From assembly GCA_050050135.1 (NCBI GenBank), contig JASFUW010000002.1:1-34852 (forward strand): a DNA stretch of 34,852 nucleotides, given 5' to 3'. Every line of letters starts with the position of its first letter. The first letter of the stretch is position 1. The translations under genes were made by a program, and so were the position numbers. This DNA comes from Phycisphaerae bacterium. GTDB taxonomy: Bacteria > Planctomycetota > Phycisphaerae > UBA1845. Positions 1,624 to 34,852 of this stretch are shown one piece after another. The notes under the pieces are model-generated. The model worked only from the letters and a program-made list of their open reading frames with translations, was not told the origin of the DNA and did not search any database.

Positions 1624-1659
1624 CTTTCCACACCTCGGGCGGGGACGAGCCGGTGGACG

Positions 1660-2853: not shown

Positions 2854-2906
2854 GTCGTGGGCACCGGGCGTCAGGCCGGCGGGTCGGGTGTCCGTATGAT
2901 CGACCT

Positions 2907-5338: not shown

Positions 5339-5341
5339 GAT

Positions 5342-6400: not shown

Positions 6401-6409
6401 GATGCCGAT

Positions 6410-7180: not shown

Positions 7181-7271
7181 TCGTGTGACCTTCGTCGAAT
7201 GTCTCTTGCGCCCGTTCGCACGGGTGTTTGATTCCAATTCGCTTTGGCGCTTTTTTGTCGAGCCTTTTGCG

Positions 7272-8381: not shown

Positions 8382-8384
8382 GCC

Positions 8385-11470: not shown

Positions 11471-11486
11471 TCCCGGCGCGCCGGGA
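11471..11486. repeat. Perfect palindrome TCCCGGCGCGCCGGGA (copy 2)
   Basis: Read directly from the sequence. There are 54 nt between it and the ATG at 11541. Confidence 0.9.
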
Positions 11487-11540
11487 GAGCATGGTTTCGG
11501 TGCGTTGTGGACCGAGATTCACCTGGGGTGGGGTCTGCGG

Positions 11541-13487: not shown

Positions 13488-13512
13488 AGTTGCCGGGTTT
13501 AGGGGGTCGTCG

Positions 13513-14199
13513 GTGCAACACACAAGAACCAGCCTGATCGGATTGACGGTTGTGATCCTGCTTTTCACGGGGATGACGCAGCGGTGGGTGCGCGTGACAC
13601 GGGCTTCCCAGGCGTCGATGCAGACCCCGTTGCGACAGCCGCTATCGCAGATTCCAGCCAATATCGGAACGTACCGGCTTCGAGGCGAGATTCCGCTGGA
13701 CACCGATGTGCTCCGGGCGGCGAACGTGGACCATTACGTGAACCGGGTATACGAGGACTCGGTCACGGGGCATCAGGTGTTCCTCTACGTCGGGTATTGG
13801 GGGACCGAGGCGGCGGGCATGGGCCATGGTCCGGACGTTTGCTACCCGGCTGTGGGATGGCGATCGGAAGGCGAGCCGAGCGGCCGGGCCGTCAGGTCCG
13901 GGAGCGGGCTCGATCGGTTCGGCGCGACCATCATGCTGCACCGGTTCTCGCACGCAGAACCGGAGGGCATCGCGCGACGGTGCGTCGGATTCGTGGCGGT
14001 GGTCAGCGGCGAGTTTGTCGGCTCGTCACGGGGGATGTTCTGGCACACCCCGCGCAGGGACGGGCACGAGGGCGGACACTACCTGGCGCAGGTTCAGGTG
14101 GCGTCAGCGGTTCCCGACGAGAAGTGGGAGAACGCGGAGTCCGAGATTGTAAGCTTCATGGAGGCGCTTCTGCCGCACACGGCTGAGTGCTTACCATAG
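13513..14199 (+). CDS. epsI: EpsI family exosortase-associated protein
   Basis: It has an N-terminal TM segment (LIGLTVVILLFTG) followed by PANIGTYRL...LDTDVLRAANVDHYVNRVY...VFLYVGYW...GHGPDVCYPAVGW, the EpsI pattern. The GTG at 13513 is preceded by AGGGGG at 13501-13506. Confidence 0.8.
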   Translation: MQHTRTSLIGLTVVILLFTGMTQRWVRVTRASQASMQTPLRQPLSQIPANIGTYRLRGEIPLDTDVLRAANVDHYVNRVYEDSVTGHQVFLYVGYWGTEAAGMGHGPDVCYPAVGWRSEGEPSGRAVRSGSGLDRFGATIMLHRFSHAEPEGIARRCVGFVAVVSGEFVGSSRGMFWHTPRRDGHEGGHYLAQVQVASAVPDEKWENAESEIVSFMEALLPHTAECLP

Positions 14200-14229
14200 G
14201 TGTTTTGGGCGCAACAGCGGCCAGGCGGA

Positions 14230-14245
14230 TCCCGGCGCGGCGGGA
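14230..14245. repeat. One-mismatch copy of the palindrome (TCCCGGCGCGgCGGGA)
   Basis: Read directly from the sequence. There are 16 nt between it and the ATG at 14262. Confidence 0.7.
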
Positions 14246-14261
14246 CGAGTGGGTTGAGTGA

Positions 14262-16439
14262 ATGTCAGAGGTGAAGCCAATAACGGTATCTCCGTATTCG
14301 CCACCGACGAAATTCTCGGGCGTGGAGCGCGAGCCTCCGCATGAGTCGCTGGTGGTGGCGCTTGTCCAACGGTGGCGGGCCGTGCTGCTCGTGGCGCTGG
14401 TGGCGGGGGCCATCTCGGTGCCGGCGGTTTGGTTTACCATACGTCCAGCCTATAAGGTCACGAGCCGGGTGAAGATTGTCCCCGTGGTGCGGCCTATCCT
14501 GTTTTCGGACCAGGATACGGATATTTCACGTCATTACGCGGTCTATGTCGCTACCGAGATGGCCGCGATGACAAGCCCCTCGGTGATCAATGCGGCGCTG
14601 GACCTTCCCGAGATTGCGTCGCTGCCGTGGGTCCGGACGTCGGTCGATCCCGTGTCCGACATCCAAGACGCGCTCTCCGTAGAATCCGTAAAGCGCACCC
14701 AGTTGCTCGCTGTTTCGATGGTCGGGCAACATCCGGAAGACATGGCAAGGATCGTCAACGGCGTGTTGAGCACGTATCTTCGTCGCCATGAGGACCGAAA
14801 GCGTCAGTGGGACGAGACGATCCTCGAGTCGCTTCGCGCCGAAGAGAGCCAGCTCGAGGCGAAGCTGGAAGCCAAGGGCGTTCAGCTCTACCAGACGGCC
14901 GTCGACCGCGGACTGGGGATGGCCCAAGAATCGGGCATGATGCTCGAGACCTGGATGAGCGAAGTCCAAGGGCTGTTGACGCAAGCCAATAAGGAGCGTG
15001 CGCTTGCGGAAGCGAGACTGAAGAGCATCAAGGCCAGTGACGAGGGCCCGGACTCCGCGGGCGTAGAGACGGCCGACCTGCGTGGTCTGCGTGACTTTGT
15101 CGCCACCGACCCGGAACTGAACAGCCTGCAAGGCCAACTCCAGAAGGCGGAGCTGTCGGTGCTGGATGACGACCGCCTGGGTCGAGGCCCGAGCCATCCG
15201 GATGTCACGGGACGCAACGAACTGATCGCGACGTTGCGGGACCGAATCGATGAGCGGCGTGAGGCCGTCGCGGAAGCCTATCGGGCGGAGGAGCGCCGCC
15301 GCCTCGAGTCCGAGATTCGGGAAGCGCAACTCAGCGCCCAGGTCTTTCGGGAGGAACTCGACAAGCTGATGCAACAGCGGGTCGGCGTGGTCGGACAGAA
15401 ATTCGAGGTCGAAAACCTGCTTCACGAACGGGAACAGCTCGAACACGCGTTGAGCCAGGTGCGGCAAAAGATCTGGAACGTCACGGTTGAGCAGCGCCGG
15501 GCTGCTCGCATCACGATCGAGTCGCTCGCGGATGCGCCGAAAGCACCGAACATCGACAACCGGCCGAAGTACTGCGCCGCCGCCGCCCTGATGAGCCTGT
15601 TTTTGGGTCTGGGGGCAGGATTGGTGCGGCATCGTTTGGACACCAGCTTCCGTCACCCCGAGCAGGTGACAGAGCGACTCGGGATGCGTGTGTTGGGTAC
15701 GGTGGCTGACGTCGGACCCGCTCGTCCCGTCGATCTTGTCGTGGATCAGCGTTTCTCGGAGCCGATCCGGGGCATTTCCGCCGCCCTGCTGGCCGATTCG
15801 ACGAAATCGCAACGGGAGTCGGGTCACTCGCGGCTGATCACCAGCCCGACGCGGGGCACGGGTAAGTCGTCGATGTCGATGAACCTCGCGCGAAGCCTGG
15901 CGGCGACGGGCCGGAAGGTGCTGCTGGTCGACGGTGACAACCACGGCCGCGGCGTGACGCGACGGTTGGACCTTTCGGGCAAACAGGGCCTGCGAGAACT
16001 GCTCACGGGGACGGCGACCCCGGACGAGGTGACCTGTTCGGACCCCGGTTCGTCTGGACTTGGCGGGATGCACGTGATCCCGGCGGGGGCACCGGACGGA
16101 CCCGGCATGCCTGGATTCGGTGAGCTGGTCGGTCGTCGCGGCGCGCAGGGGCGGCTGAAAGATCTGTTCAAGTCGTATGACGAGGTGATCGTTGATTCAC
16201 CGCCGGTGCTGGCGAAAAGCGATACGGTCATCCTGGCGACGCTGGTCGACGAGGTGGTCCTGGTTCTGCGCGCCGACCGTTCGACGCGTGAGGAGGCACA
16301 GGACGCTCAACAAGACCTTGCCGCCGTGGGCGCCCGGGTCGTCGGCGTGGTGTTGAACGCGGTCAACCCGAAGAACACACGGCGTGGGTATGGGTACAGT
16401 TACGGGTATACCTACGCCCACACGGAGGACGAAGCGTGA
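14262..16439 (+). CDS. Polysaccharide chain-length determinant (Wzz/GumC-like) fused to a BY-type tyrosine autokinase
   Basis: It has an N-terminal TM segment plus a Wzz-like region and a long coiled coil. It has Walker A SPTRGTGKSS, A' LLVDGDNHGRG, Walker B VIVDSPPVL and a C-terminal Tyr cluster RRGYGYSYGYTYAH. Confidence 0.9.
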   Translation: MSEVKPITVSPYSPPTKFSGVEREPPHESLVVALVQRWRAVLLVALVAGAISVPAVWFTIRPAYKVTSRVKIVPVVRPILFSDQDTDISRHYAVYVATEMAAMTSPSVINAALDLPEIASLPWVRTSVDPVSDIQDALSVESVKRTQLLAVSMVGQHPEDMARIVNGVLSTYLRRHEDRKRQWDETILESLRAEESQLEAKLEAKGVQLYQTAVDRGLGMAQESGMMLETWMSEVQGLLTQANKERALAEARLKSIKASDEGPDSAGVETADLRGLRDFVATDPELNSLQGQLQKAELSVLDDDRLGRGPSHPDVTGRNELIATLRDRIDERREAVAEAYRAEERRRLESEIREAQLSAQVFREELDKLMQQRVGVVGQKFEVENLLHEREQLEHALSQVRQKIWNVTVEQRRAARITIESLADAPKAPNIDNRPKYCAAAALMSLFLGLGAGLVRHRLDTSFRHPEQVTERLGMRVLGTVADVGPARPVDLVVDQRFSEPIRGISAALLADSTKSQRESGHSRLITSPTRGTGKSSMSMNLARSLAATGRKVLLVDGDNHGRGVTRRLDLSGKQGLRELLTGTATPDEVTCSDPGSSGLGGMHVIPAGAPDGPGMPGFGELVGRRGAQGRLKDLFKSYDEVIVDSPPVLAKSDTVILATLVDEVVLVLRADRSTREEAQDAQQDLAAVGARVVGVVLNAVNPKNTRRGYGYSYGYTYAHTEDEA

Positions 16440-16570
16440 AGGCAGGGAGGCGGGGAGGTTTCGATGGCGGCGCTCCGACGGACGTCGGGATTCCGCTGAG
16501 CCAATTACGGGGACGGAGGCCCTCTAGAGACCGGTTTGCAGTAGCTGGAAGCTAGAGGCAAGACGACAGA

Positions 16571-18295
16571 ATGCTGTTTATCCACTTCGGCACGGAATTC
16601 GGAATCCCGATAGCGGTCGGGAGCGGTGACGGGGCGTCGGCTTCGCCGGCAGCGCTCTCGCCGGAACGTGCGCGCCTCATTGACTCCTATTGTCGGTGGG
16701 CGTCGGAGCGCGCGGCCCCCCCGCTTGCTCTGTTGCCCAGCTCACAACGAGACGCGCTCGGGCCGATGTTGGATGAGCTCCCGCACGTTTCCCCGGCGTG
16801 GTATAGCGAGGAAGGCGTTTCGGCCCCGCCGCAGTTGCGAAGGGGTGAGCGAATCTGGATCGTGAACGGAAAGCACCTGCCAATCGTCGATTGGCACGCC
16901 GCGCGGTCGGCCGTCCGCCGTCATGACACGGAAGTGCTCATCTTCAGCTCATCCAACTCCGCACAGCGACAATATTCGGAGTCCGTGCTGGTCAGTGAAA
17001 CGGGTGAGGTCGTGAAGTTCAAGCGTCACTACTGCGACTCACCGGGGTTTACGGACTTGTGGAACGGCGAAGCTTCGTTGCTCGTGGCGTCGCGGGAGCG
17101 GGCACAGGCTGTCCTAAGCCACATGCTGACACGCGGATGGGGGTTGGAAAGCGTCGGTGCGTTGATCCGGCGGTTCAGCGTTCAGTGGTCGTCGGCGCCG
17201 TGCGTGCTGTCTGAGTTCGGGGTCGTGTCCCCGTTCTGGCCCGGCTCGCCGGGAGAAGAGCGGGCGGTGAATGCAGCCGACCGTTCAAATTCGGACGGTT
17301 CGGGTTTTCCTGGTTCGCTGAGTCTGGCTATGGAGGTACTTAGAAACGATGTCCAGCCGGGCACGCGGCGAGCGGTGGATCTTCCGGACCACGGGGGCAA
17401 CGGAGTGGGCTGGCATGGGCAGGAGACGCCTGTAGTCTCGGATCGCCATCGAACGGATGCCGACGCATCTGGAGGCGCAGCGTTTGATCCCGGCCTGAGG
17501 AGCCTGCTGCCTGACCGATACGAGGAGCCCTGGGAAGACGACGATGACGAGCCCGATCCCCTCGAGACGTACGCCGATTCGGTCGCGCCGGGATCCGACC
17601 TGGCGTATTTCTTCGCTAAGCGGACAATCGACATCTTCGTCTCGGCGTCGGGGCTGCTGCTGCTCTCGCCGCTGCTCGTGGTCGTGGCACTTCTAGTCAA
17701 GTTGACGTCGCCCGGGCCGGTGTTTTTCGGGCACCCGAGGCAGGGGAAGGGCGGCAAGGAGTTCCGTTGTCTCAAGTTCCGATCGATGCGTCAGGACGCC
17801 AGCGCCCTCCAGGACCAGCTCCGCAGCCAGAACCAAGTCGACGGACCACAGTTCAAAATCGACAACGACCCGCGCGTCACGAAAATCGGCCCGTGGCTCA
17901 GGCATTACAACATCGACGAGCTGCCGCAACTGATCAACGTGCTGCTGGGGCAGATGAGCCTGGTTGGACCGCGGCCCTCACCCGATAACGAAAACCAACT
18001 CTGCCCGGCCTGGCGACGGACGCGTCTTTCGGTCAGACCCGGGATCACGGGGCTGTGGCAGGTTCTGAGGCTCCGAAACCCGAACGCCTCGGATTTTCAG
18101 GAGTGGATCTATTACGACGTCGAGTACGTCCGTCACCGGTCACCCTGGCTCGATTTTCAAATCCTCCTCCACACGCCGGTCGCGATGTTCGCGGCGCGGC
18201 GCCTCACGGCGTTCGCCGAGCGTCTGGAGCGTCATGGTATCTGCACGCGGGCGGCCGCGCTTCGCCGACATTACGAAGGTCTGACCAACCGATAA
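16571..18295 (+). CDS. Priming sugar transferase (monotopic polyprenyl-phosphate glycosyl-phosphate transferase) with a ~340-aa atypical soluble N-terminal region
   Basis: The C-terminal part reads AKRTIDIFVSASGLLLLSPLLVVVALLVKLTSPGPVFF...RCLKFRSM...KIDNDPRVTKIGPWLRHYNIDELPQLINVLLGQMSLVGPRP...RPGITGLWQV (Bac_transf pattern; the Asp-Glu dyad is at 17915-17920). The N-terminal region has no TM segment and is followed by an acidic linker (EEPWEDDDDEPDP). Confidence 0.88.
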   Translation: MLFIHFGTEFGIPIAVGSGDGASASPAALSPERARLIDSYCRWASERAAPPLALLPSSQRDALGPMLDELPHVSPAWYSEEGVSAPPQLRRGERIWIVNGKHLPIVDWHAARSAVRRHDTEVLIFSSSNSAQRQYSESVLVSETGEVVKFKRHYCDSPGFTDLWNGEASLLVASRERAQAVLSHMLTRGWGLESVGALIRRFSVQWSSAPCVLSEFGVVSPFWPGSPGEERAVNAADRSNSDGSGFPGSLSLAMEVLRNDVQPGTRRAVDLPDHGGNGVGWHGQETPVVSDRHRTDADASGGAAFDPGLRSLLPDRYEEPWEDDDDEPDPLETYADSVAPGSDLAYFFAKRTIDIFVSASGLLLLSPLLVVVALLVKLTSPGPVFFGHPRQGKGGKEFRCLKFRSMRQDASALQDQLRSQNQVDGPQFKIDNDPRVTKIGPWLRHYNIDELPQLINVLLGQMSLVGPRPSPDNENQLCPAWRRTRLSVRPGITGLWQVLRLRNPNASDFQEWIYYDVEYVRHRSPWLDFQILLHTPVAMFAARRLTAFAERLERHGICTRAAALRRHYEGLTNR

Positions 18296-18533
18296 TGGAC
18301 TAGTGCTGTTTCCGGAAAGAAACTTCGAAATCCGGGTGGCGTTCCGGCACGCCGGGGTCGCAGCCGAGCCGTGATTGGCCCGAACCATGGCCTGCCCCTT
18401 CGGGTCTGACCATGCCACCCGAACTTGACTTCCGTTGCTGAATGCGGCACCAGGTTCGGCCCGACCGTGTTTTGCGGAAGCCGCCGGTTTGCTCCGGCTG
18501 CCGCTGGTCTGTGATCGAAAACGAGACGAGAGC

Positions 18534-21500
18534 GTGGCGGAAACTCAAACGACCCCAACACGAGGACGCGTTCGCATCGGCGGCATCGTCGTGGTCGCCG
18601 TGCTGTTGGTGTCTGCGGGGGTTGCGGCGTACGTTCGCCATACCTATCAGAAAGAAGCGAACACGGTCAAGCTGCTCCGCCAGGCGCGGGAGGCGGAGGA
18701 ACAGCGCGACCTCAAGGCGGCGTCCACGTACTACCGGCTTTATTTGAAGCGGCGTCCTTCGGATGCTTCTGCGTTGGCGGACTACGCGTCGGTGCTCAAC
18801 ACGCGGATGGTGTCCCAAGGCGCCGGGACCGAGCTGGTGGGGGACGTTTTGGGCACGCTCCGGAGACTCGTACGGCTGGAACCGGGGAACGTGGAGGCGC
18901 TGGGGCGATTGGCGACGCTGTATCTGCAAGTGGGTGATTACTCGCTGGCAGAACAGCACGCCCGCGGTTGGCTGACGCAGGCGCCGGACTCGGTTGACGC
19001 GGCGCTTTGTCTGGCCCGGGCACGTCGGGCGCTGCTTCGTTTCGATGAAGCGGCGGCGGGTCTGGTCGACGCGATCGAGACGACACCGGAGCACCCGCCG
19101 CTGTATGCGCTGCTGATCGAGTTGCTGTCGACGAATCTGGATCGGCCGCAGGAGGCAGCGGCGTGGGTCACCAAGGCGGTGCGACGCCATCCGGAGTCCT
19201 ACGAGGTCCACCTTGCCGCGTCAGCATTCTACAAGCGCCAGCGGTCGTACTCGGGGGCGGACGACGCGGCGGAGGTTCATCTGGAACGTGCGTTGGCGTT
19301 GGCGCCGCAGAATGTCGATGTGCTCGTCCCGGCTGTGTTGACCTATATAGCCCAGGGACGACTTTCGGACGCGAAGGAGCTGCTCGACGATGCCATGGAT
19401 GTGGCACCCGAATCGGCGCGGTTGACGGCGGCGCGGGCCAAGTGGGCCGTCAGAACGAATGACCCGAAGGAGATGACGGCGCTGGCTGAAGAACTGACCA
19501 CCGGGGGCGACCCGAGCGCGCCGGGCGGGCTGGATCGTCTCGCTCAGGCTGCGGAGCTGTTCCTTCGGGCGGGCGACAGCGACGCGGCGGACCGGTGCAT
19601 CGAGCGGCTCGCGAGCCCCGGTGCGGGGGGACTCCACGTTTCCGGCCCGTTGCGGACGCGACTCGACGTGCTGCGCGGAGCCCGACTGATTGCCATCGGC
19701 GAGCCGTTTGCCGCGATGCCGTTTCTTGAGCGCGCCCTCGTTCGGGCTGGTCCGTTCTCCTGGGCTGCGGAACTGCTCGCGATCGCCCATATGCGAACCG
19801 GCGCGATCGAGACAGCGGTCGACATCTACGAGCAGATTCTGTTGTCTGCCCCGGATGAAGTTGCGATCGCCGCGACCCTGGCGTGGATCGAGATCGAGCT
19901 CGGGCGATACCAAGAGGCGCGAAGACACGCGCAGCACGTGGGCGACGCCGGCGGCGCCTTCCGGCGCCAGGCCCGGTTGCTTCTCGCGGCGTGTGACCTG
20001 GGGGAGGCAAGCCGAGATGCGGACGCCGACCTGCTTGCCGCGGCGAAGGTGACCCTCGAAGCCCTGCTCGAGCAGGAACCGGAGGACGCCACCGCAATCG
20101 GGTTGCTCGCCGAATCGTTCGTGGGGCTCGGGCAGACGCAGCGGGCCGTCGAAACGGTGATGGAGTCGCCCGTGGATGACGAGCGCAAGGCGGCGCTGGT
20201 GCTGGAGGTGGGCCGCGGATTGCTCGACCGGGAGCTGGTGGAGCCTGCCGAAGCGTTGGCTTTGGAAGCGACGCGGCGGTTCCCGACGGCGGCGGCCGGG
20301 CACGAATTACTCGTGTACGTGTTGGCGACAACGGACCGGGTGTCCGAAGCTGCCGGACATATCGCTGCAACTGAATTGGCGGACCGGGCGAAGGGCCGCC
20401 TCTGGGAGATCATCAGCCGCGCTCAGTTCGCGTCCGAGCAGACGCAGACGGCGACCGAGACGCTTCGCCGGGCGGTCGCGCTTCAACCTACGAACGTTCG
20501 TGCCCGGCAAGCGCTGCTCCGACGGACGCCCGATCTGTCTGAAGCCAGACGACTCATCGACGAGATTCGTGCGATCGAAGGTAGTGAGGGTTTGGTCTGG
20601 CGCTTCGAACGGGCGTGGCTTTCGCTCGAGCGTGATCGCATGGCCGGTCGGGTGGAAGAAGCCATCGAGTTGCTGAAACGCTGCCTCACGGTCCGCCCCG
20701 GATGGATCGCCGCACGACTTCTGCTCGGATACGCGAACGAGGTGTCGGGCAATCTCGAGGAGGCTGCGGACGCCTATCGGAACGCGATCGCCCAGCATCC
20801 GAGGCTCGGCAAGAGCCAGGCGGCGATCCGTCTGGTTCGGGTCTTGCGGCAACTCGGTGACTACTTCGAGGCTGACAACCTGCTGGCATCCATCGCGGAT
20901 GCGATCGGGAACGGTGAGCGCGATCCGGTCGCCGCGGGAGCGCGGCGGACGCGCGATGTGACCTCGGAAAACCGGTCTGATTTGCTCCGCCTTCAGACCG
21001 AACGACACCTCCGGCGGCACGAACTGGAATCGGCGGCGGAGACGGCGGGGCAGCTTCTCGCGCTGCGCAAGGACGACCCCGCGTGGGCCGCACTGACGGT
21101 GGAACTCTGGCTTCGTGCGGGCAACCTGGCGGAGGCTCAGCGCATTGCGCTTGCCACGCTGGAAGCACACCCGGACGTCCCCGCCCTGCTCTGGGCGTAC
21201 GCTCGGGTGCTCATCCGCAGGGATCGAGCGGAGGAGGCGGAGTCGATGGTGCGTGCCATTGCGATGCGTCTCGAACGGGCGTCGCATTACCTTCTGCTCG
21301 CGCAACTGCTGACGCGTCTGGAGAAACACGAGGAAGCGGAGCGGGCCATCGCCCGTGCGATGGAACTGGAGCCGAACAACGCATCGGTGTTCAGCGCCTG
21401 CGCGAAGTTCTGGGGGTCGCGAGGCGACTTCGCGAAGCAGCTTGCGCTGACGCGTCGGGCTGTCGAGCTGCGCGGGGAGGACCCGGGAGCATCACTCGCC

Positions 21501-22835
21501 CTGGCGCGGTTGCTGGCCGCCAGCGACGCATCCGAGCACCGATTGGAGGCCGCGGTCATCGTCGATCACCGCCTGCGCGGAGGCGCCGAGGACCTGCCGG
21601 CTTTGCTGCTCCGGGCGAGGTTGGCGACGACCGACGTGCCCCCGAACACCGCACGCGCCGAGGCGGCGCTGATGCAAGCGCTCGCGATTGACCCTCGCTC
21701 ACCCGACGCGCACAAGCTGCTGGCGGCCGTTCAGATTCGCTCGGGGCGGCTGAACCTCGCCCGTGATACGGTTTCGGAGGGTCTGGCGTTCGCCCCGAAA
21801 GACCCGGACTTGTTGCTGGCGTCGGCGCAGATCCACTGCCATCATGGTGACTACCATCTGGCGGTCACGCCGCTCCGATGGCTCCTGGAGACCAAACCCC
21901 GGTTGCCGGTGGCGGTCCGGTTGTTAGCCACCGCTTATCAGCGAACCGGTCAAACGGACCGCGCGATCCGCACGATCGAGGGATTGGCACCGCAGGGCGT
22001 TTACACGCCAACCGAACTCATTGTCCTTGCGAAGCTGTACGAACTCGAAGGCGACCACGAGCGAACAGACTCGCTTTTCCATCGGGCGTTTGAAATGCAT
22101 CCCTCGTCCGTCGAGGTATTCCAGGAACATCTACAGTATCATGCACGGCTAGGGAATTTCGACGAGGTTTACGGGCTCACGATGTCTCGCAGGCAGAAAC
22201 AACCCGAGGACGCCGCGTCGGTTCTGTTGGCGGCGGAACTACTTGCGACGGGCGCTGAGGATCGACGTCTGCGTGAGATCGGTACGACCTGGTTCGAAGA
22301 GATCGCCACGGAGTTTCCCGGACTCGCCGGGGACGCGACCTACACCGACGCCCTGTGTCGGTACCATCGCGGCGAGCTGTCCGCCGCGGAGCGGTTGTTC
22401 GAGAATGCGATGCGGATCGCGCCGACCTCCCCGAAACCCGTAAACGCATTGGCTTGGCTCTATTCCGAAGATAGAAACGATCCCGCGAAGGCGCTCGAGC
22501 TGATCGAAGGGTTCCTGGCGGATAAACCGCTCACTGACGCCGATCTGCTCGACACGCACGGCGCCGTCCTTCTTCGCCTAGGTCGGCACAGAGAGGCGGC
22601 GCGAACATTGAGAACCTGCTTGCAGACGGCGGGTCAGACCGCCACGCTGACGGCTGCGTCCTACCATCTCGGCCTGGTGCTGCTGGAAACCAACGAGGAA
22701 GACGAAGCGCGTGTCTACCTTCGCCGGGCCTTGGAGCTGGATGACCGGCTCGGGGGATTATCCGAGGACGAAGCGCGACACGCCCGTGATCTGATGATTC
22801 GGCGACCGAGTCGGAAACTAGAGACCGGGAACTAG
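18534..22835 (+). CDS. Membrane-anchored giant TPR-repeat protein (PEP-CTERM-system PrsT-like role inferred from context)
   Basis: It has a single N-terminal TM segment (IGGIVVVAVLLVSAGVAAYV) followed by more than 1,300 aa of A/L/R-rich TPR-like helical repeats. The start is uncertain: GTG at 18534 or TTG at 18435. Confidence 0.8.
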   Translation: MAETQTTPTRGRVRIGGIVVVAVLLVSAGVAAYVRHTYQKEANTVKLLRQAREAEEQRDLKAASTYYRLYLKRRPSDASALADYASVLNTRMVSQGAGTELVGDVLGTLRRLVRLEPGNVEALGRLATLYLQVGDYSLAEQHARGWLTQAPDSVDAALCLARARRALLRFDEAAAGLVDAIETTPEHPPLYALLIELLSTNLDRPQEAAAWVTKAVRRHPESYEVHLAASAFYKRQRSYSGADDAAEVHLERALALAPQNVDVLVPAVLTYIAQGRLSDAKELLDDAMDVAPESARLTAARAKWAVRTNDPKEMTALAEELTTGGDPSAPGGLDRLAQAAELFLRAGDSDAADRCIERLASPGAGGLHVSGPLRTRLDVLRGARLIAIGEPFAAMPFLERALVRAGPFSWAAELLAIAHMRTGAIETAVDIYEQILLSAPDEVAIAATLAWIEIELGRYQEARRHAQHVGDAGGAFRRQARLLLAACDLGEASRDADADLLAAAKVTLEALLEQEPEDATAIGLLAESFVGLGQTQRAVETVMESPVDDERKAALVLEVGRGLLDRELVEPAEALALEATRRFPTAAAGHELLVYVLATTDRVSEAAGHIAATELADRAKGRLWEIISRAQFASEQTQTATETLRRAVALQPTNVRARQALLRRTPDLSEARRLIDEIRAIEGSEGLVWRFERAWLSLERDRMAGRVEEAIELLKRCLTVRPGWIAARLLLGYANEVSGNLEEAADAYRNAIAQHPRLGKSQAAIRLVRVLRQLGDYFEADNLLASIADAIGNGERDPVAAGARRTRDVTSENRSDLLRLQTERHLRRHELESAAETAGQLLALRKDDPAWAALTVELWLRAGNLAEAQRIALATLEAHPDVPALLWAYARVLIRRDRAEEAESMVRAIAMRLERASHYLLLAQLLTRLEKHEEAERAIARAMELEPNNASVFSACAKFWGSRGDFAKQLALTRRAVELRGEDPGASLALARLLAASDASEHRLEAAVIVDHRLRGGAEDLPALLLRARLATTDVPPNTARAEAALMQALAIDPRSPDAHKLLAAVQIRSGRLNLARDTVSEGLAFAPKDPDLLLASAQIHCHHGDYHLAVTPLRWLLETKPRLPVAVRLLATAYQRTGQTDRAIRTIEGLAPQGVYTPTELIVLAKLYELEGDHERTDSLFHRAFEMHPSSVEVFQEHLQYHARLGNFDEVYGLTMSRRQKQPEDAASVLLAAELLATGAEDRRLREIGTTWFEEIATEFPGLAGDATYTDALCRYHRGELSAAERLFENAMRIAPTSPKPVNALAWLYSEDRNDPAKALELIEGFLADKPLTDADLLDTHGAVLLRLGRHREAARTLRTCLQTAGQTATLTAASYHLGLVLLETNEEDEARVYLRRALELDDRLGGLSEDEARHARDLMIRRPSRKLETGN

Positions 22836-24381: not shown

Positions 24382-25371
24382 TCAACCCGGCTGGCGCAAT
24401 GTCATGCCGTGCGCCCCGAGTTGACGCTTGATCTCCGTCAGCGAGGTCTGCCCGAAGTTTTTGATGCTGATGAGCTCGGCCTCGGTCCGCATCGAGAGTT
24501 CGCCGAGGGTAGAGATTCCGAGGCGCTGGAGCGCTTTCCGCGATCGAACGGAAAGCTCCAACTCCGATACGGGCCGGCTGAAATTGGCCCGTCCGTCGGG
24601 CGAAACGGTAACCGGTTTGGCAAGGACGGGTTGTTCGGCCGGTTGGAGGGCTTGCCCCAACTTCAGCCCCTTCTGGTCGAGCATGGCCTTGATCTCGTTG
24701 AGTGAGGTCTCGCCGAAGTTCTTGTAGGAGAGCAACTCGGCTTCGGTGGTTCGCAGCAGGTCGCCAAGCGTCTTGATGTTCATCTGCCGCAGGCAGTTCC
24801 GGGCTCGAACGCTGAGCTCGAAGTCGCTGATGGGCACGTCGAGGACGGCGTCTCTTCGCTCGCGGTCGCGCAAGCGCTGCTCGTCGAAGGCCATCGTGTA
24901 GGAGCTTTCGACCGATTGGAGAAAGGCCTTCGCACGCGTGTGGTTCGGAAAGTCGGCGAGCACGTCGAGCAGGCATGATTCGGCTCGTTCCAGGTCGCCG
25001 TGCTCCTCGTACAAGACGGCGAGGTTGATCAGTGCGTTGATGGGTGCGGGGCTTTCAGCCTTGCACATCTCGTATAGCTCGACGGCTTTGTCGTCCGCCC
25101 CGCCCTGATCGTACAACAGAGCTGCACGAAACGCGGCCTCGGTGTGGTCGGGGTCGGTATCGAGGACCTTCTCATAGCAGTCCAGCGCGCCTTCGCGGTC
25201 GTAGGACATTTCGCGCAGGAATCCGCGCAAGAACTCCACCTGCCCGCCGTTCTCGTCGGTCTCGACGGTGGCGTCCAATTCGCGCTGGGCTTCTTCCAGC
25301 TCACCCGCCCGGATGCGTTCGGCTACCGTTTCGAGCGCCGTGCTCATTTTGTCAGGTTCCCACGTCCCCAT
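24382..25371 (-). CDS. TPR protein with two tandem RNA polymerase alpha-subunit C-terminal-domain (alphaCTD, HhH) modules
   Basis: There are two repeats: ISDFELSVRARNCLRQMNIKTLGDLLRTTEAELLSYKNFGETSLNEIKAMLDQKGL (about 24655-24840) and VSELELSVRSRKALQRLGISTLGELSMRTEAELISIKNFGQTSLTEIKRQLGAHGM (about 24394-24576). Both match the RpoA alphaCTD signature (LSVRxxNxL...I.T.G.L...L....NxG.KSL.EI). The N-terminal region is TPR-like. The start is ambiguous: ATG at 25371, ATG at 25347 or TTG at 25425. Confidence 0.85.
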   Translation of the reverse strand: MGTWEPDKMSTALETVAERIRAGELEEAQRELDATVETDENGGQVEFLRGFLREMSYDREGALDCYEKVLDTDPDHTEAAFRAALLYDQGGADDKAVELYEMCKAESPAPINALINLAVLYEEHGDLERAESCLLDVLADFPNHTRAKAFLQSVESSYTMAFDEQRLRDRERRDAVLDVPISDFELSVRARNCLRQMNIKTLGDLLRTTEAELLSYKNFGETSLNEIKAMLDQKGLKLGQALQPAEQPVLAKPVTVSPDGRANFSRPVSELELSVRSRKALQRLGISTLGELSMRTEAELISIKNFGQTSLTEIKRQLGAHGMTLRQPG

Positions 25372-25495
25372 CGTACAAGAGACCAGAAACAAGAAACCGG
25401 AGACTAGACGACGTTCCGATCCCAATGTCTAGGCTCTAGATTCCGGTCGCCGCGTACGTGGGGAAGGTAGCGGCGACACCAACAAGCCGAACCGA

Positions 25496-28588: not shown

Positions 28589-28760
28589 GGTCTCGCCTCC
28601 CCGCCCGAACGCACACTCCGTCGCATCGAAGGTGCGTCTCGGCGGCTGGAATCCGGACGGACAACCTCTATTCAAACATACAACATGAGACCGCACTTAG
28701 CCAAGTATTTGCGCCAAGCCGCCGGTTTTTCGGACGGTGGCGGAATCGGCGTGCGTGGCT

Positions 28761-29594
28761 ATGATCGCCCGAATGTCCGGATCATCGCCAGCAGGGATGC
28801 TCGAACTCGCCACGAGGCTCGCCGCGGAGGCGGGCGAGATTGCCTTATCTTATTTCGGCTCGGCCGCCGTCGAGCGTAAGGCTGATAACAGCGTTGTCAC
28901 CAACGCGGACCACGAGATGCAGGCCCACATTTTGGGCACGATCGCCCGTGCCTACCCGGACCACGCGGTCCGCGCTGAGGAAACTCAGCGAGATCCGGGT
29001 GCCCACGCGGACGGCCACGAGGCCCGGTACTGCTGGGTGATCGATCCGCTCGACGGAACGCGGAACTACGTATCCGGGTTTCCCTGCTTTGCCACGTCGA
29101 TCGCCGTGCTCGATCACGGTTGGCCGGTCGTCGGCGTGGTCCTGGAGCACAACCATCGACATCTTTACGCAGCGTCGCGCGGAGGGGGCGCGACGTTCAA
29201 CGGCGGCGCGATCACGGTACACGAGGTTCCGGACGGGTCGGACGTGCTGATCGGAATCCCGTCCAGCAAAGATCGGATGACCGTACAGGTGCTCCGTCAC
29301 TGGCTCGGTGAGCGCGGGATGATCACGCGCAACCTCGGATCGACGGCGTTGCATCTGGCGATGGTCGGCTCGGGTGCCTTGGGCGCGACATTCTGCAAAC
29401 AGTGCAAGATATGGGACATCGCAGCCGGGGCTCTGATTGTCGATGAGGCGGGCGGGCGGTGCACGCAGGTTGACGGGTCGGACCGGTTGCCGTTCGATCT
29501 AAGCGCCGACCCCGAGGAGGACCTGCCACTGCTCGCGGCTGCCCCGCGGACGCACGAGCGGTTGATGACTTCGATCAGCGATCAAGTCTGCTGA
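28761..29594 (+). CDS. Inositol monophosphatase family protein (SuhB/CysQ-like)
   Basis: The sequence contains VVTNADHEMQ...RAEE...WVIDPLDGTRNYVSGFP...WDIAAG, which are IMPase metal-binding motifs. The start is ambiguous: GTG at 28737, ATG at 28761 or ATG at 28773. Confidence 0.85.
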   Translation: MIARMSGSSPAGMLELATRLAAEAGEIALSYFGSAAVERKADNSVVTNADHEMQAHILGTIARAYPDHAVRAEETQRDPGAHADGHEARYCWVIDPLDGTRNYVSGFPCFATSIAVLDHGWPVVGVVLEHNHRHLYAASRGGGATFNGGAITVHEVPDGSDVLIGIPSSKDRMTVQVLRHWLGERGMITRNLGSTALHLAMVGSGALGATFCKQCKIWDIAAGALIVDEAGGRCTQVDGSDRLPFDLSADPEEDLPLLAAAPRTHERLMTSISDQVC

Positions 29595-29973: not shown

Positions 29974-30732
29974 ATGCTGCGAGGTTACCTAGCGATCCTG
30001 TTTACGTGCTTCATGGTGGTCGTGGGCGGCGTTCCGCTCGTGGTGCTGGGATTGGTTTGCCGTTCGCGCCGCGCCATGGCATGGGTGGCATCGTCCTGGG
30101 CTCGCGGCGCACTTGCGATCTGCGGTGTTCGGCTGACGATCCACGGGGCGGAGGTGCTTCCCGACGGACCGGCGAGCTTTCTGTTGGGGAACCACCAGAG
30201 CGCGCTCGATATCCCGATTCTAATCGCCGCGATGCGCGGCGACGTGCGTTTCATGGCCAAGAACTCGCTGTTTCGTTTTCCGATTTTCGGATGGGTGCTT
30301 TCGATGTACGGATACATTCCCATCGACCGGAAACGGACTCGCGTCACGCTGGACCGTCTTCATCGCATGTACGACCGGGTTGAGCGGGACCCGATCTCGC
30401 TGGTAGCGTTCCCGGAGGGCACGCGAAGCCGGGACGGGCGGTTGTTGCCATTTCGCAAGGGTACGATGAAGATATGCCATCGCATCGGGCTTCCGGTCGT
30501 GCCGTTTGCGATTGAAGGGTCGCACCGCGTGACGCCGCGGAAGCGGATTCATGCGAAACCGGGTCCGGTTCGGTTGACGTTCGGCGAACGGATCGGTGCG
30601 GCGACGGTCGCACAGATGTCGAGCGAGGCGCTTCACGACCGCATCCGCGGCGCGATTGCCGACATGCTGGATCGAACCGAGGAAATCGAGACACCCCGGG
30701 CGGCTTCGGTAACGGCCGCAGAGGGCAGGTAA
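29974..30732 (+). CDS. plsC: 1-acyl-sn-glycerol-3-phosphate acyltransferase (LPLAT/AGPAT family)
   Basis: It has an N-terminal TM segment, the HX4D motif GNHQSALDIPIL, FPEGTRSRDGRLLPF and VVPFAIEG. The start is ATG at 29974 or GTG at 29953. Confidence 0.88.
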   Translation: MLRGYLAILFTCFMVVVGGVPLVVLGLVCRSRRAMAWVASSWARGALAICGVRLTIHGAEVLPDGPASFLLGNHQSALDIPILIAAMRGDVRFMAKNSLFRFPIFGWVLSMYGYIPIDRKRTRVTLDRLHRMYDRVERDPISLVAFPEGTRSRDGRLLPFRKGTMKICHRIGLPVVPFAIEGSHRVTPRKRIHAKPGPVRLTFGERIGAATVAQMSSEALHDRIRGAIADMLDRTEEIETPRAASVTAAEGR

Positions 30733-30733: not shown

Positions 30734-33700
30734 GTGATCCGTAAGAATCCGTCCGAACCGCAACGCCTCGCCGACCGGTTGGCCGGTCACCATGTCCTCG
30801 TGACCGGTTCGACGGGCTTTCTCGCGAAAGCGGTCGTCGAGAAGCTGCTTCGGGCGGTTCAGACCGTGGGGGGTATCTATCTTCTGGTGCGGGTCCGCTC
30901 TGACGGTACGACGCCGCAACAGAGAGCACAGCGTGAGGTCTTCAGCTCACGAGCCTATGACCGGCTGAGGGCTTCACTCGGCGAGCGTTTTGCCCGGTTG
31001 TGCGAGGAGAAGATTCACGTCGTCGGCGGGGACCTGACCAAGGAACGATTGGGAATCCCGCCCGAGGAATACTCCGCCCTGGCCGGGCGCGTGACGTTGA
31101 TCATCAATAGTGCCGCGACGGTGACATTCGACGAGCGGATCGATCTGGCGTTGGACCTGAATACGCTCGGCCCGAGACGTTTGCTCCAGTTTGCGCGAGA
31201 TTGCGGGAGTGTTCCGTTCATGCAGGTGTCGACCTGCTACGTTTGCGGAACGCGCAGCGGGGTGGTGCCCGAGGATTTCAGTGCGCCGCAAACCGCGCAG
31301 GAGCGATTGCCGCGACGTGAAGGGTCCGATGCGTATGATCTGGACGGCGTCGTCGAATCTGCACAGGCGGAGGCCGCCGAGCTTCGCCATCGGTTCGGCG
31401 CCGACACGGAAGCCTGTCGCCGCGAGCTGATCGAGGCGGGGATGCGGCGTGCCCGCTCATACGGCTGGCACGACACGTACACGTTCACGAAGTGGTTGGG
31501 AGAGCAGTTTCTCATTCGCGATCGGGGCAACGTTCCGCTTGTCATCTTTCGCCCTGCGATCATCGAGGGGAGCTTCGACGAGCCGATTCCCGGTTGGATC
31601 GACGGGTTGCGGATGGCGGACCCGATCATCGTGGCCTACGGGAGGGGCAAGCTCTCGCAGTTCCCGGCGATCAGCGACCTTCCCATCGACCTGATTCCCG
31701 TCGATTTCGTCGCGAATGCCATGCTCGCGACACTGCCCGTGGGGAAAGGGTGGTCGGAGGGGCTGGCGGTTTATCACTGCGCTTCGAGCGAGCGCAACCC
31801 GCTGCTCCTGAGCGTTTTGCGCAAGTCACTCAGCCGTGCCTTCAAGAAACGCCCGCTCAGCGACGATGACGGGCGCCCCGTGCGACCGCGTGAGCTTCGC
31901 TATGTGGAGCAGTCGGCGTTCATCGCCCGGTGGGAGTCGAAGTACCGGTGGATTCTCCGCCTTCAGCGCGTTTACAAAGCGTTCGGAATCCAGGGCCGGC
32001 GGTTCCGCAAGCTCACCGCGCTCGGTCGACAGATCGAGCAGGTCATCTATTTCGCGAAGATTTACGCGCCGTACACACACCTTGCGTGCACGTTCGGCGA
32101 CGAGAAGCTGCGTGCGGCGGCGGATCGGCTGGATCCCCAGGATCGGAAAGCGTTTACCTTCGACGTAGAGCGGATCGACTGGGACAACTACATCGTCGAT
32201 CGGCACATACCCGGTTTGCGAGCGTTCGTGTTGAGCCCGGCCGCGGAACCGACCCCGCGCATTCTGGCGAAGGAGGAATGGGACCGCGACGCCGTTCGAA
32301 CGCCGGAGGAACTGCTCCGAGGAAACAACCTGTTCGAGGTCTTCGCCGGCGCGGTCCGTCGATATGGTGACCGACCCGCGCTCCAGGTCCTGCGCGGCAA
32401 CCGCTGGCTTCGTTACTCCTACAACGAGGCGCTGCGCGCGACGGGTGCGGTGATGCAGCGTTTCGTCGATCGCGGGCTGACACCCGGCGACCGCGTCGCG
32501 ATCTGCGGCGAGAGCTGTCCGGAATGGGGATTGGTCTATCTTGCGATCATGCGGGCGGGGCTGACGGCCGTGCCGCTGGACCCGCAGCTCCCCCCTGCCG
32601 ACGCGTGGTCCGAGGCGCGGTTCGCGGGTGCGAAACTGATGTGCGCGACACGGCGCACGTTGGCGGGGCTCGAGGCGCACCGCTCGGAGAGCGATGCCGA
32701 ACTCGTCGAGCTGCGCGAACCGTTCATCCCCCGACCGGCGGCCGCGCGCGACACCGCGCCGGAACCGGTCGAGGTCAGTGACACTGCGGTGGCCTCCATC
32801 TTGTTCACGTCCGGCACGACGGTGTCGCCCAAGGCGGTCCAACTGACGCATCGCAACTTCATCGCCAACGCGACGGCCCTGCTCAAGGTGCACATGGTGG
32901 CGCCGACGGATCAGTTGCTCTCGGTGCTTCCGATGTACCACGCGTTCGAGTTCACGGGCGGGTTTCTGGCGCCGCTGGTCTGCGGGGCGACGATCACGTA
33001 CGTCGACGAACTCAAGGGACCGAAGATTCAGGAAGCGACGCAGGCGACCGGAACGACGGTCATGCTGGTGGTGCCGCGCTTGTTGCGGCTGTTTCACGAT
33101 TCGATCGACAGCACGGTCGCCGCGGGGGGGTGGCTCCAGCGTTTCGCCTTTCGCGCGTTCGGCTTTCTCTCGGACGCGACGGGGTATTCGCTCGGTCGAT
33201 GGTTGTACAGCCGGGTGCACAAGCGGTTCGGCGGGCGACTGAGGATGTTCGTCTCGGGGGGGTCGCGGCTAGACCCGGACCTGTTCAAGTCATTCCGGCA
33301 AATGGGTTTCGAAGTATACGAAGGGTATGGGCTGACCGAGACCGCACCCGTTTTGACGGTCAACCCGCCCGGTCGGGCGCAAGGCGGCTCGGTGGGTCCG
33401 GCGCTGCCGGGGGTCGAGATCGAGATCCGGAACCAGAACCTCGAGGGCGTCGGCGAGGTCTGGGCGCGGGGAAAGAGCGTGATGCCGGGGTACCTCGACA
33501 ATGCGGAAGCCACAGGCGAGGTCCTCGTCGACGGCTGGTTCCGCACCGGGGACCTCGGGCGGCGTGATTCGAACGGATACCTGTACCTCACCGGGCGATC
33601 GAAGGACCTGATCGTCACCGACGCGGGCAAGAACGTCTATCCCGACGAAGTGGAGGCGAAATACTGCGAGCTGCCCTGCGTCAAGGAAATCTGCGTGTTC

Positions 33701-34852
33701 GGGATGCCGTCGGAAAGGGGGCTGGGCGACGTCGTGCACGCCGTGGTGGTAGTCGACGAGGGCGCCAGCCCGGAACTCGACCGGTCGTCGATCGAGCGTG
33801 AGATTCGATTGGCCGTCGGGTCGATCGGCGAAACCTTGCCTTCCCACGAGCGAATCGCGACGCTTCACTTCTGGACGCGCGACCTTCCGAGAACGTCCAC
33901 ACTCAAAGCGAAGCGGAGTCTGATCCGTGACATGGTTCAGGCCGAGCACGCCGCGGCGACGCTCAGCTCCTCGAGCGAGCACGCGCCTCGCGGTGATGAG
34001 GTTCAGCCGCCCCCGACGTCGGAGGACGACCCCAACGAAGCGAAGAAGCTGGCGGTGGTCCGGCAGATCGTCGCGAACCAGACCAAATGTCCCGAGCCAT
34101 CGGTCCGACCGACCGCCCACCTCCTGTTGGATCTCGGGATCGATAGCATCGGCAAACTTGACCTGATCGGGGCGGTCGAGGCCCGCTTCAACATGGAGAT
34201 CGACGAGGCGACGGCGGCGGCGATCACGCGCGTATCCGATGTCTTGAAGGTCATCGGCGACCGGCGGCCGCGCGAGTCCGCACGTGCCGCGCCGCAGCCG
34301 CGCCCCCCACGGATGACCGCAGAATCAGCCGACGCTTCGTTGAACGGAGCGCCTTCTCCGGCGGTCGTCCCACTGCGTTGGCTCGTGCGCGGCGGTCTGG
34401 GCGCGCTGATGAGTTCCTATATCCGGGTCCACGCGCTGGGGCGAGAGAACATCCCCCCAGCAGGGGCGTTCCTCCTCGCACCGAATCACTCGTCGCACCT
34501 GGATTCGCCTTCGGTGTTGATGGCTGTGGGGAGTCGGCGGCGTGTGTGGGTCGCCGGGGCCGAGGACTACTTCTTCAACACCCGAATCCGGCGGTTGGTC
34601 TTCGGACAATGTCTCGACGCGATCCCCTTCGACAGAAGGGCGGACGGCGTGCTCGGTTTGCGGCGGTGTAGCCAAGCGCTGAACCGCGGCGACGGGCTTT
34701 TGATCTTCCCCGAAGGAACGCGTTCCACGACGGGTGAAATGCAACCGTTCAAGATCGGTGTCGCGGTGCTCGCGATGGAGCGGAAGGTGCCTATCGTACC
34801 TGTGTACATCCACCGCGCGTTCGAGCTTCTGCCCAAGGGACAGCGTTTCGCC
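30734..34852 (+). CDS. Giant multidomain lipid enzyme (partial, C-terminus beyond the window): fatty-acyl reductase, acyl-AMP/CoA ligase, acyl carrier domain and AGPAT acyltransferase
   Basis: It is absent from the ORF track because it has no stop in the window. Frame 2 is open for 1373 codons from the GTG at 30734, which has GAGGG 8 nt upstream and lies 1 nt after the plsC stop. The reductase shows VLVTGSTGFLAK (30797-), VSTCYV and YTFTKWLGE. The ligase shows ILFTSGTTVSPKAV (32807-32833), YEGYGLTETAP, FRTGDLG and GRSKDLI. The carrier domain shows LLDLGIDSIGKLDL (Ser 34145-34147). The acyltransferase shows APNHSSHLDS (34484-) and IFPEGTRSTTGE. The long minus-strand ORFs here (31826..33220, 33290..34120) are antisense artefacts. 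Confidence 0.88.
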   Translation, partial: MIRKNPSEPQRLADRLAGHHVLVTGSTGFLAKAVVEKLLRAVQTVGGIYLLVRVRSDGTTPQQRAQREVFSSRAYDRLRASLGERFARLCEEKIHVVGGDLTKERLGIPPEEYSALAGRVTLIINSAATVTFDERIDLALDLNTLGPRRLLQFARDCGSVPFMQVSTCYVCGTRSGVVPEDFSAPQTAQERLPRREGSDAYDLDGVVESAQAEAAELRHRFGADTEACRRELIEAGMRRARSYGWHDTYTFTKWLGEQFLIRDRGNVPLVIFRPAIIEGSFDEPIPGWIDGLRMADPIIVAYGRGKLSQFPAISDLPIDLIPVDFVANAMLATLPVGKGWSEGLAVYHCASSERNPLLLSVLRKSLSRAFKKRPLSDDDGRPVRPRELRYVEQSAFIARWESKYRWILRLQRVYKAFGIQGRRFRKLTALGRQIEQVIYFAKIYAPYTHLACTFGDEKLRAAADRLDPQDRKAFTFDVERIDWDNYIVDRHIPGLRAFVLSPAAEPTPRILAKEEWDRDAVRTPEELLRGNNLFEVFAGAVRRYGDRPALQVLRGNRWLRYSYNEALRATGAVMQRFVDRGLTPGDRVAICGESCPEWGLVYLAIMRAGLTAVPLDPQLPPADAWSEARFAGAKLMCATRRTLAGLEAHRSESDAELVELREPFIPRPAAARDTAPEPVEVSDTAVASILFTSGTTVSPKAVQLTHRNFIANATALLKVHMVAPTDQLLSVLPMYHAFEFTGGFLAPLVCGATITYVDELKGPKIQEATQATGTTVMLVVPRLLRLFHDSIDSTVAAGGWLQRFAFRAFGFLSDATGYSLGRWLYSRVHKRFGGRLRMFVSGGSRLDPDLFKSFRQMGFEVYEGYGLTETAPVLTVNPPGRAQGGSVGPALPGVEIEIRNQNLEGVGEVWARGKSVMPGYLDNAEATGEVLVDGWFRTGDLGRRDSNGYLYLTGRSKDLIVTDAGKNVYPDEVEAKYCELPCVKEICVFGMPSERGLGDVVHAVVVVDEGASPELDRSSIEREIRLAVGSIGETLPSHERIATLHFWTRDLPRTSTLKAKRSLIRDMVQAEHAAATLSSSSEHAPRGDEVQPPPTSEDDPNEAKKLAVVRQIVANQTKCPEPSVRPTAHLLLDLGIDSIGKLDLIGAVEARFNMEIDEATAAAITRVSDVLKVIGDRRPRESARAAPQPRPPRMTAESADASLNGAPSPAVVPLRWLVRGGLGALMSSYIRVHALGRENIPPAGAFLLAPNHSSHLDSPSVLMAVGSRRRVWVAGAEDYFFNTRIRRLVFGQCLDAIPFDRRADGVLGLRRCSQALNRGDGLLIFPEGTRSTTGEMQPFKIGVAVLAMERKVPIVPVYIHRAFELLPKGQRFA

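Follow-up and report, generated by a model that had tools for sequence, protein, structure and literature searches.

The DNA analyzed here is a contig of 34,852 nucleotides (JASFUW010000002.1, assembly GCA_050050135.1) from an uncultured Phycisphaerae bacterium, found in a wetland metagenome run; we refer to this whole stretch as the window. At its 3' end lie a gene for a stand-alone acyltransferase of the PlsC type and, directly downstream, a gene for a four-domain enzyme of the ElbD family (the megaenzyme), whose 3' part is lost at the contig end. The features are as follows, with nucleotide positions of the window, residues (aa) of the respective protein and the values of the Pfam matches in brackets:

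29974-30732, + strand: stand-alone PlsC/AGPAT-type acyltransferase, 252 aa (Pfam Acyltransferase, 1.9e-30)
30734-34852, + strand: ElbD-family four-domain enzyme, GTG start, cut by the contig end
30800-32233, + strand: reductase module of the fatty-acyl reductase (FAR) type (NAD_binding_4 at aa 23-330, 1.2e-65; Sterile/FAR_C at aa 426-500, 2.8e-11)
32351-33901, + strand: adenylate-forming ligase (AMP-binding at aa 540-921, 1.7e-70; AMP-binding_C at aa 972-1056, 3.5e-8)
34055-34249, + strand: acyl carrier (phosphopantetheine-binding) domain (PP-binding at aa 1108-1172, 8.5e-8, 32.8 bits against a cut-off of 20.8)
34430-34852, + strand: C-terminal PlsC/AGPAT-type acyltransferase domain (Acyltransferase at aa 1233-1359, 3.9e-22)

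The reading frame of the megaenzyme (30734-34852, + strand) comprises 1373 codons with zero stops, whereas the remaining + frames contain 35 and 20 stops. This bears out an earlier reading made from the letters of the DNA (the sequence-only reading), which had described an unbroken frame of at least 1373 codons up to the window end. The GTG at 30734 is the earliest possible start past an in-frame TAA at 30710-30712 and lines up with the N-termini of 14 full-length homologs in the alignment, and a GAGGG is located 8 nucleotides (nt) 5' of it. The junction with plsC is exactly as tight as had been claimed, since the plsC stop codon TAA (30730-30732) and the GTG are separated by the single base G 30733. 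The GC content at the three codon positions (0.67/0.48/0.80) matches the values of the window's other genes. Five long antisense open reading frames (ORFs) were checked and none of them had a coding-type codon-position GC; three (31826-33220, 33290-34120 and 34325-34813) displayed a mirrored pattern with a GC1 of 0.76-0.82. Therefore, long antisense ORFs such as 31826-33220 were ruled out as genes and treated as artefacts, in agreement with the sequence-only reading, which had also stated that the ORF list hides the real gene. The megaenzyme is missing from that list only because ORFs running past the window end are left out.

In the protein collection there is no contig longer than these 34,852 bases that bears the protein. 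As the window is the longest recorded contig with it, the truncation reflects the contig end and not a lesion. The full-length homologs have 1405-1470 aa, and their lengths and alignment indicate that about 48 C-terminal residues are lost past the contig end, so that the window protein represents 1373 of about 1420 aa. In a window with a GC content of about 63-66%, many long spurious ORFs and an incomplete gene, a chance frame, a frameshift-fused chimera or a pseudogene could be suspected, but we assign such an artefact a negligible probability. The frame stays open through all 1373 codons where the other frames have 20-35 stops, its GC3 is of the coding type and all active-site motifs are intact, which speaks against it. 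A sequencing error that splits the frame, named beforehand as a possible flaw, was also examined: the alignment with the 14 full-length homologs of 1409-1470 aa is collinear and contains neither a frameshift nor an internal gap. The artefact explanation is effectively refuted.

All domain matches of the megaenzyme exceed the Pfam gathering cut-offs, and the invariance of residues was judged over 15 sequences, namely the window protein and the 14 full-length homologs. The reductase module carries the NAD(P)H-binding loop TGSTGFLAK and the catalytic Tyr and Lys in YTFTK, with G25, G28, Y249 and K253 being invariant. With its residues 12-500 the protein spans positions 9-507, essentially the whole length, of 7eoz_A, a fatty acyl-CoA reductase of solved structure (1.7e-95). 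A Rossmann domain of the NAD_binding_4 family, a GxxGxxG loop, a YxxxK motif and a C-terminal Sterile domain are all present, and the module is predicted to be a fatty-acyl reductase of the alcohol-forming type. The ligase displays the motifs TSGTTVSPK (A3), YGLTET (A5), TGDLG (A7) and GRSKD (A8) as well as an A10-type Lys in TLKAKR; its key motif residues including K1058 are invariant. Among solved structures it matched the CoA-ligase-type ANL enzyme 4fuq (1e-42) better than the fatty acyl-AMP ligase (FAAL) 3pbk (3e-26). The sequence-only reading had called this module an acyl-AMP ligase; its adenylate-forming nature is supported by Pfam, whereas the more specific name is a functional guess, as the module is nearer to CoA-ligase-type ANL enzymes than to FAAL.

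In the carrier domain the phosphopantetheine attachment site is Ser1138 in LDLGIDSIG (nt 34145-34147), and the block H1129-G1140 is invariant save L1131. The C-terminal acyltransferase domain, whose final residues, about 48 in number, lie past the contig end, contains NHSSHLD (HX4D) and FPEGTRS with H1252, D1257 and P1326-S1331 invariant; PlsC 5kym was its sole PDB match (4.6e-13). Accordingly, the four modules named in the sequence-only reading were all recovered, together with the additional Sterile domain at the C-terminus of the FAR, and each of its motifs (TGSTGFLAK, YTFTK, TSGTTVSPK, YGLTET, TGDLG, GRSKD, LGIDSIG, NHSSHLD as HX4D and FPEGTR) is present with invariant key residues. By sequence, the four catalytic modules of the megaenzyme are intact.

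The likely start of plsC is the ATG at 29974, which corresponds to Met8 of a longer form beginning at the alternative GTG 29953 and is the invariant start among the compared orthologs. The encoded protein has the features of the PlsC/AGPAT group, i.e. a hydrophobic N-terminus, an HX4D motif (NHQSALD) and FPEGTRS, and 5kym was again its sole PDB sequence match (2.7e-24). In the NCBIfam model TIGR00530 (AGP_acyltrn) it reached 98.1 bits at a cut-off of 102.95, and the ortholog from the relative L004 reached 104.8. It is 46-59% identical to the gene located directly 5' of the megaenzyme in three relatives (L001, L002 and L004). By these features the upstream gene is a PlsC-type acyltransferase, with acyl- or alkyl-glycerol-3-phosphate as its putative acceptor. 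Scans of the region around the plsC start for Rfam families, tRNAs and promoter motifs gave no matches, and a lone terminator-like match near the start was no better than chance and lies inside the plsC coding region. Besides, a gene of the inositol-monophosphatase family (also HisN/CysQ-like) is located at 28737-29594 (+), 380 nt 5' of plsC. It was considered as a member of the same operon and rejected, as the upstream neighbours differ in every relative; it is probably unrelated to the operon.

The elbABCDE ether-lipid operon of Myxococcus xanthus reportedly goes back to work by Lorenzen et al. in 2014. According to PMC9131029, ElbD of this organism consists of an N-terminal FAR1-like domain followed by acyl-CoA synthetase, ACP and AGPAT-like domains. 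The same order (a reductase first, then acyl-CoA synthetase, next a thiolation domain, and AGPAT last) is given in PMC9426513 and in bioRxiv 10.64898/2026.06.23.733905. On one polypeptide the window protein likewise carries a reductase of the FAR type, then the adenylating ligase, the ACP and finally the AGPAT-like acyltransferase, and its Pfam domains match the inventory of ElbD (MXAN_1528, UniProt Q1DC43, GenBank ABF88003.1) by published description, as the sequence-only reading had proposed. That reading had also pointed out that the reductase comes first in the window protein. The N-terminal position is correct, but it does not distinguish the protein from M. xanthus ElbD, which is itself reductase-first (PMC9131029); the order in the window is therefore canonical and not a variant. 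A cluster from a metagenome-assembled genome (MAG) of the Acidobacteriota, L008, served as a proxy for direct comparison. It encodes a HAD protein, a Lar_N protein, a four-domain enzyme and an NAD-epimerase, and from published gene descriptions it would correspond to elbB-elbC-elbD-elbE. The ElbD reading is supported by this comparison: L008's four-domain enzyme and the window protein could be aligned over their entire length, with 32% identity across 1423 positions (E=0), and the profiles of the Phycisphaerae clade and the L008 clade matched with a probability of 100 and an E-value of 2e-261 over 1373 columns.

Homologs of the megaenzyme are numerous. We found more than 100 full-length homologs of 58-70% identity with the same architecture, every one of which has kept the FAR; roughly a dozen carry an organism name, and these are Phycisphaerae, Phycisphaerales or Planctomycetota MAGs. 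An exhaustive search of representatives of 50%-identity clusters, queried with the first 1200 aa of the megaenzyme, revealed about 54 full-length representatives (1350-1750 aa, 30-47% identity) and many of about 870-920 aa that comprise ligase, ACP and acyltransferase and have no reductase. A quick tree of the full-length proteins showed two broad clades, and the Phycisphaerae group was nested within the one made up of shorter proteins. The names returned by a profile search with this clade were Planctomycetota, Acidobacteriota, Latescibacteria, Armatimonadota and Fervidibacterota, with no Myxococcota among them; of the clusters of 10 distant representatives, one included Candidatus Binataceae. 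A contig scan with the profile of the 'long' clade used the generic pattern FTSGTTGxPK and matched mostly ordinary acyl-CoA synthetases, L008 being the only full-length relative among the matches listed. In an earlier study of the Black Sea, BLAST searches with ElbD gave matches in 33 out of 267 MAGs of Planctomycetota (at least 30% identity, E <1e-30; PMC11868695). The ElbD family is large and already flagged in Planctomycetota MAGs.

The shorter relatives also bear on a different explanation, an Aas-like salvage or remodelling system. Here, exogenous fatty acids would be activated and used to re-acylate lysophospholipids, the stand-alone PlsC would perform a second acylation, no ether bond would be formed and the FAR would merely divert some acyl chains to alcohols. 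Aas (PRK08633), known from E. coli as a bifunctional acyl-ACP synthetase and 2-acylglycerophosphoethanolamine acyltransferase, shares with the megaenzyme a PF01553 acyltransferase and an AMP-binding acyl-ACP synthetase which transfer free fatty acids to a lipid acceptor, and the Aas equivalog was the third-best NCBIfam match, covering the ligase and acyltransferase regions (2.7e-65). Moreover, both acyltransferase modules resemble PlsC and not GNPAT, and like the relatives of about 870-920 aa, most non-myxobacterial ElbD-like proteins are without a FAR domain (PMC9131029). However, the match of 220.8 bits is far under the Aas cut-off of 1221, and in Aas the acyltransferase is N-terminal to the ligase, the ACP is a free protein and a reductase is absent, so that the megaenzyme has the reversed order and an ACP and FAR in addition. 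The FAR is of full length with invariant catalytic residues, and its conservation in every close homolog argues for selection on reduction. In M. xanthus, disruption of elbD strongly lowered alkyl and vinyl ether lipids and complementation rescued them (PMC9131029), which points to ether lipids. We therefore consider salvage of this kind an unlikely explanation for the locus.

Two other known architectures share parts of that of the megaenzyme. FARAT (FAR-GNPAT; M. xanthus MXAN_1675, Tetrahymena and Dictyostelium; PMC13012113) also begins with a FAR, to which a glycerolipid acyltransferase is fused, and it provides the synthesis of ether lipids with both the fatty alcohol and the acylated backbone, as the megaenzyme would. 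In contrast to the megaenzyme it has neither ligase nor ACP, uses acyl-CoA and works with AGPS (PMC13012113), whereas the acyltransferase of the megaenzyme matches PlsC instead of GNPAT and no AGPS is linked to it. In carboxylic acid reductase (CAR, A-PCP-R, PDB 5mso) an adenylation domain similarly loads a carrier and an NAD(P)H-dependent Rossmann domain reduces the thioester. Its reductase is, however, a C-terminal thioester reductase ending at the aldehyde, while the megaenzyme has an N-terminal eukaryote-like FAR with a Sterile domain and an added acyltransferase.

Since the window ends inside elbD, the neighbourhood was read on longer contigs of six Phycisphaerae/Planctomycetota relatives (L001, L002 and L004-L007). 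In all six the ElbD-like gene is followed by a HAD-IB hydrolase gene (237-261 aa) and a zinc-dependent alcohol dehydrogenase gene (Zn-ADH, about 410 aa), with mostly overlapping or abutting gene junctions. plsC is found directly 5' of elbD in five of the six; the junctions range from -4 to +3 nt, and the called start in L002 overlaps by 41 nt. As PlsC adjoins the megaenzyme in five of six relatives, the term 'two-acyltransferase lipid module' from the sequence-only reading is a fair description. Genes farther 5' of plsC are not conserved among the six relatives. A lipid kinase of the YegS/DagK family is encoded downstream in five relatives, and in two a 530-aa Lar_N (LarA-like, elbC-like) gene is inserted between ADH and kinase. 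The HAD gene was located 3' of elbD in eight of eight relatives when two more distant family members (L088 and L089), which keep only the ElbD-HAD pair, were included; it overlaps or abuts elbD in seven of them, with a gap of about 90 nt in L089. The Phycisphaerae HAD protein is homologous to that of L008 (4e-44). Within the MDR superfamily, the Zn-ADH falls into the polyol/threonine dehydrogenase branch, whose enzymes work on secondary alcohols of polyols. For the organism of the window, the HAD, ADH and kinase genes are expected from the relatives to lie past the contig end. In L004 the stop codon of the lipid kinase gene overlaps with the start of an alpha/beta-hydrolase gene (17217-18023), whose product may be a lipase or esterase that was added to the operon.

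The Lar_N genes (DUF2088, LarA-like nickel-pincer, about 530 aa) have these positions:

6360-7958 of L008
13406-15004 of L005
13226-14818 of L006

Those of the Phycisphaerae operons are 46% identical to that of L008 over the full length. The nearest solved structures are 9q2u ('LarA-like nickel-pincer nucleotide cofactor-utilizing enzyme') and 9q3j (a DUF2088 protein). A LarA-type racemase or epimerase in an ether-lipid operon could act on glycerol C2.

The gene neighbourhood is informative for two further explanations. A pathway to fatty alcohols or neutral lipids (wax-type or alkyl-diacylglycerol storage), in which free alcohols are esterified instead of being used for membrane ether phospholipids, would suit the N-terminal 500 residues, which form a complete alcohol-forming FAR by comparison with 7eoz (1.7e-95). 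It would also suit the neutral alkyl-diacylglycerol TG-1 that M. xanthus produces (PMC9131029), and fatty alcohols were an option raised in the sequence-only reading. No wax synthase of the WS/DGAT type is present in the operons of the relatives read, though, and PlsC, the HAD-IB phosphatase and the YegS/DagK kinase represent the chemistry of glycerophospholipid intermediates, which makes a storage pathway quite improbable. Even less is to be expected of an NRPS-like secondary-metabolite enzyme which makes a specialised signalling or antimicrobial lipid and no bulk membrane lipid; this we regard as very unlikely. According to bioRxiv 10.64898/2026.06.23.733905 and PMC9426513, genome-mining tools label elbD homologs as 'NRPS-like', and for sponge symbionts a diversification of ether-lipid natural products is discussed along with differences in A-domain specificity. 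Ether lipids of M. xanthus serve as developmental signals (PMC9426513). Against such a role, the gene is near-universal and seemingly single-copy at 58-70% identity across Phycisphaerae MAGs and its neighbours are housekeeping-like lipid genes, so that core lipid metabolism fits better than an accessory biosynthetic cluster.

Returning to the relation with elb clusters, we consider it rather probable from gene order and domain content that plsC and the translationally coupled gene of the ElbD-family enzyme at the end of the window open an elb operon of the Phycisphaerae type as its first two genes. PMC9131029 places elbD in elbABCDE of M. xanthus, with elbA and elbE as NAD-dependent epimerase/dehydratase genes, elbB as a HAD-like gene and elbC as a gene of unknown function. 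The M. xanthus operon shares the HAD gene (elbB) with the Phycisphaerae operon, and in some of the relatives a LarA-like gene would correspond to elbC; judged by synteny, ElbC of M. xanthus (MXAN_1529) would be a Lar_N/DUF2088 protein. In contrast, the order in Phycisphaerae is rearranged to plsC-elbD-elbB-ZnADH-[elbC]-dagK, NAD-epimerase/dehydratases of the ElbA/ElbE type are replaced by the unrelated polyol-type Zn-ADH, and the operon has gained a PlsC of its own as well as a lipid kinase. Similar arrangements were described for sponge symbionts (Poribacteria and Acidobacteriota; PMC9426513, bioRxiv 10.64898/2026.06.23.733905): these papers report a core of elbD and elbB with acyltransferase and diacylglycerol (DAG) kinase neighbours, and the bioRxiv paper mentions clusters of elbD and elbB only, flanked by glycerol-3-phosphate acyltransferases and DAG kinases. 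Compared with these descriptions, the Phycisphaerae operon differs in its host group (Planctomycetota), its wetland origin and its constant polyol-type Zn-ADH.

Several observations weigh against an assignment to the elb pathway. An ElbE-type SDR (NAD-epimerase/dehydratase) is found in none of the six Phycisphaerae-type operons, and the Zn-ADH occupying the next position is unrelated to the SDR of L008. The elbC-like gene is present in just two of the six, and neither AGPS nor another known ether-forming enzyme is encoded in the operons of the relatives. The window itself ends inside elbD and holds only the first two genes of the operon. M. xanthus ElbD was likened by published description, the sequence comparison running through the L008 proxy only. 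Furthermore, how a fatty acid is turned into an alkyl ether lipid via ElbD is described as unknown in PMC9131029. In Pontiella isolates with ElbD homologs no ether lipids were detected (PMC11868695), hence the presence of the gene does not guarantee the product. For the Phycisphaerae enzyme the lipid product is accordingly given as putative, be it an ether lipid, a fatty alcohol or another lipid.

A possible mechanism for an ether-lipid operon of this type can nevertheless be outlined. The ligase would adenylate a free long-chain fatty acid and charge the carrier domain in cis. Part of the acyl-S-carrier would be reduced to the fatty aldehyde or alcohol by the FAR domain, and the fused acyltransferase would pass acyl groups from the carrier to an acceptor of the glycerol-phosphate or dihydroxyacetone phosphate (DHAP) type. 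Both products might then be joined as 1-O-alkyl glycerol phosphate in a further step. The polyol-type Zn-ADH, in the position of ElbE, could reduce or oxidise C2 of the backbone, and the stand-alone PlsC would acylate sn-2, yielding 1-alkyl-2-acyl-glycerol-3-phosphate. Finally, the ElbB-like HAD phosphatase and the YegS/DagK lipid kinase may interconvert the phosphate and free-alcohol forms. That plsC-elbD-elbB-ZnADH(-elbC)-dagK encodes a compact pathway which needs neither AGPS nor ElbE to convert free fatty acids into 1-O-alkyl-2-acyl-glycerol phosphate is a tentative proposal with a low probability. If it were true, the Phycisphaerae operon would delimit the minimal set of genes behind the ether-bond-forming step of elb, with the Zn-ADH (reductive etherification or C2 redox) and, where present, the LarA-like nickel-pincer ElbC (C2 stereochemistry) as candidates for the missing chemistry, and wetlands and sediments would have an unrecognised source of non-isoprenoid alkyl glycerol ethers in the Phycisphaerae.

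Non-isoprenoid ether lipids of bacteria serve as biomarkers of the environment and are relevant to the 'lipid divide'. The gene, the ElbD family and its occurrence in Planctomycetota are already published, and the copy in the window adds little to them. The sole mildly new element is the operon variant with an added PlsC, a Zn-ADH for ElbE and a lipid kinase, which lies mostly outside the window. As the copy in the window shows, the canonical ElbD architecture is standard in wetland Phycisphaerae, and fixed partners accompany it in this lineage: PlsC, the HAD phosphatase, the polyol-type Zn-ADH and the lipid kinase. Being compact, this set is a useful candidate for rebuilding the pathway in a heterologous host.

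Apart from the genes at its 3' end, the window contains several other loci. A block of sugar-nucleotide genes on the - strand (403-10399) encodes a CapE/FnlA-like dehydratase, an RmlD-like reductase, a UDP-GlcNAc 2-epimerase, a nucleotidyltransferase, an NAD-epimerase and a GT2 protein. Three tandem paralogous genes of the C-methyltransferase type (Methyltransf_13/14/23) are found at 1660-2970, 2907-4088 and 4085-5338, which is an unusual triplication. An exosortase-linked exopolysaccharide locus extends from 11382 to 22835 (+). It comprises a 701-aa exosortase with an EpsH domain at aa 411-664 and an N-terminal extension of about 400 aa, a DUF3485/EpsI-like gene, a 725-aa P-loop protein (chain-length/tyrosine-kinase-like), a 574-aa priming sugar transferase of the Bac_transf family and a 1466-aa protein consisting entirely of TPR repeats. 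Besides, the gene at 24382-25425 (-) encodes a 347-aa protein in which TPR repeats are combined with two copies of RNA_pol_A_CTD (1e-43, two stretches), an odd fusion outside rpoA.

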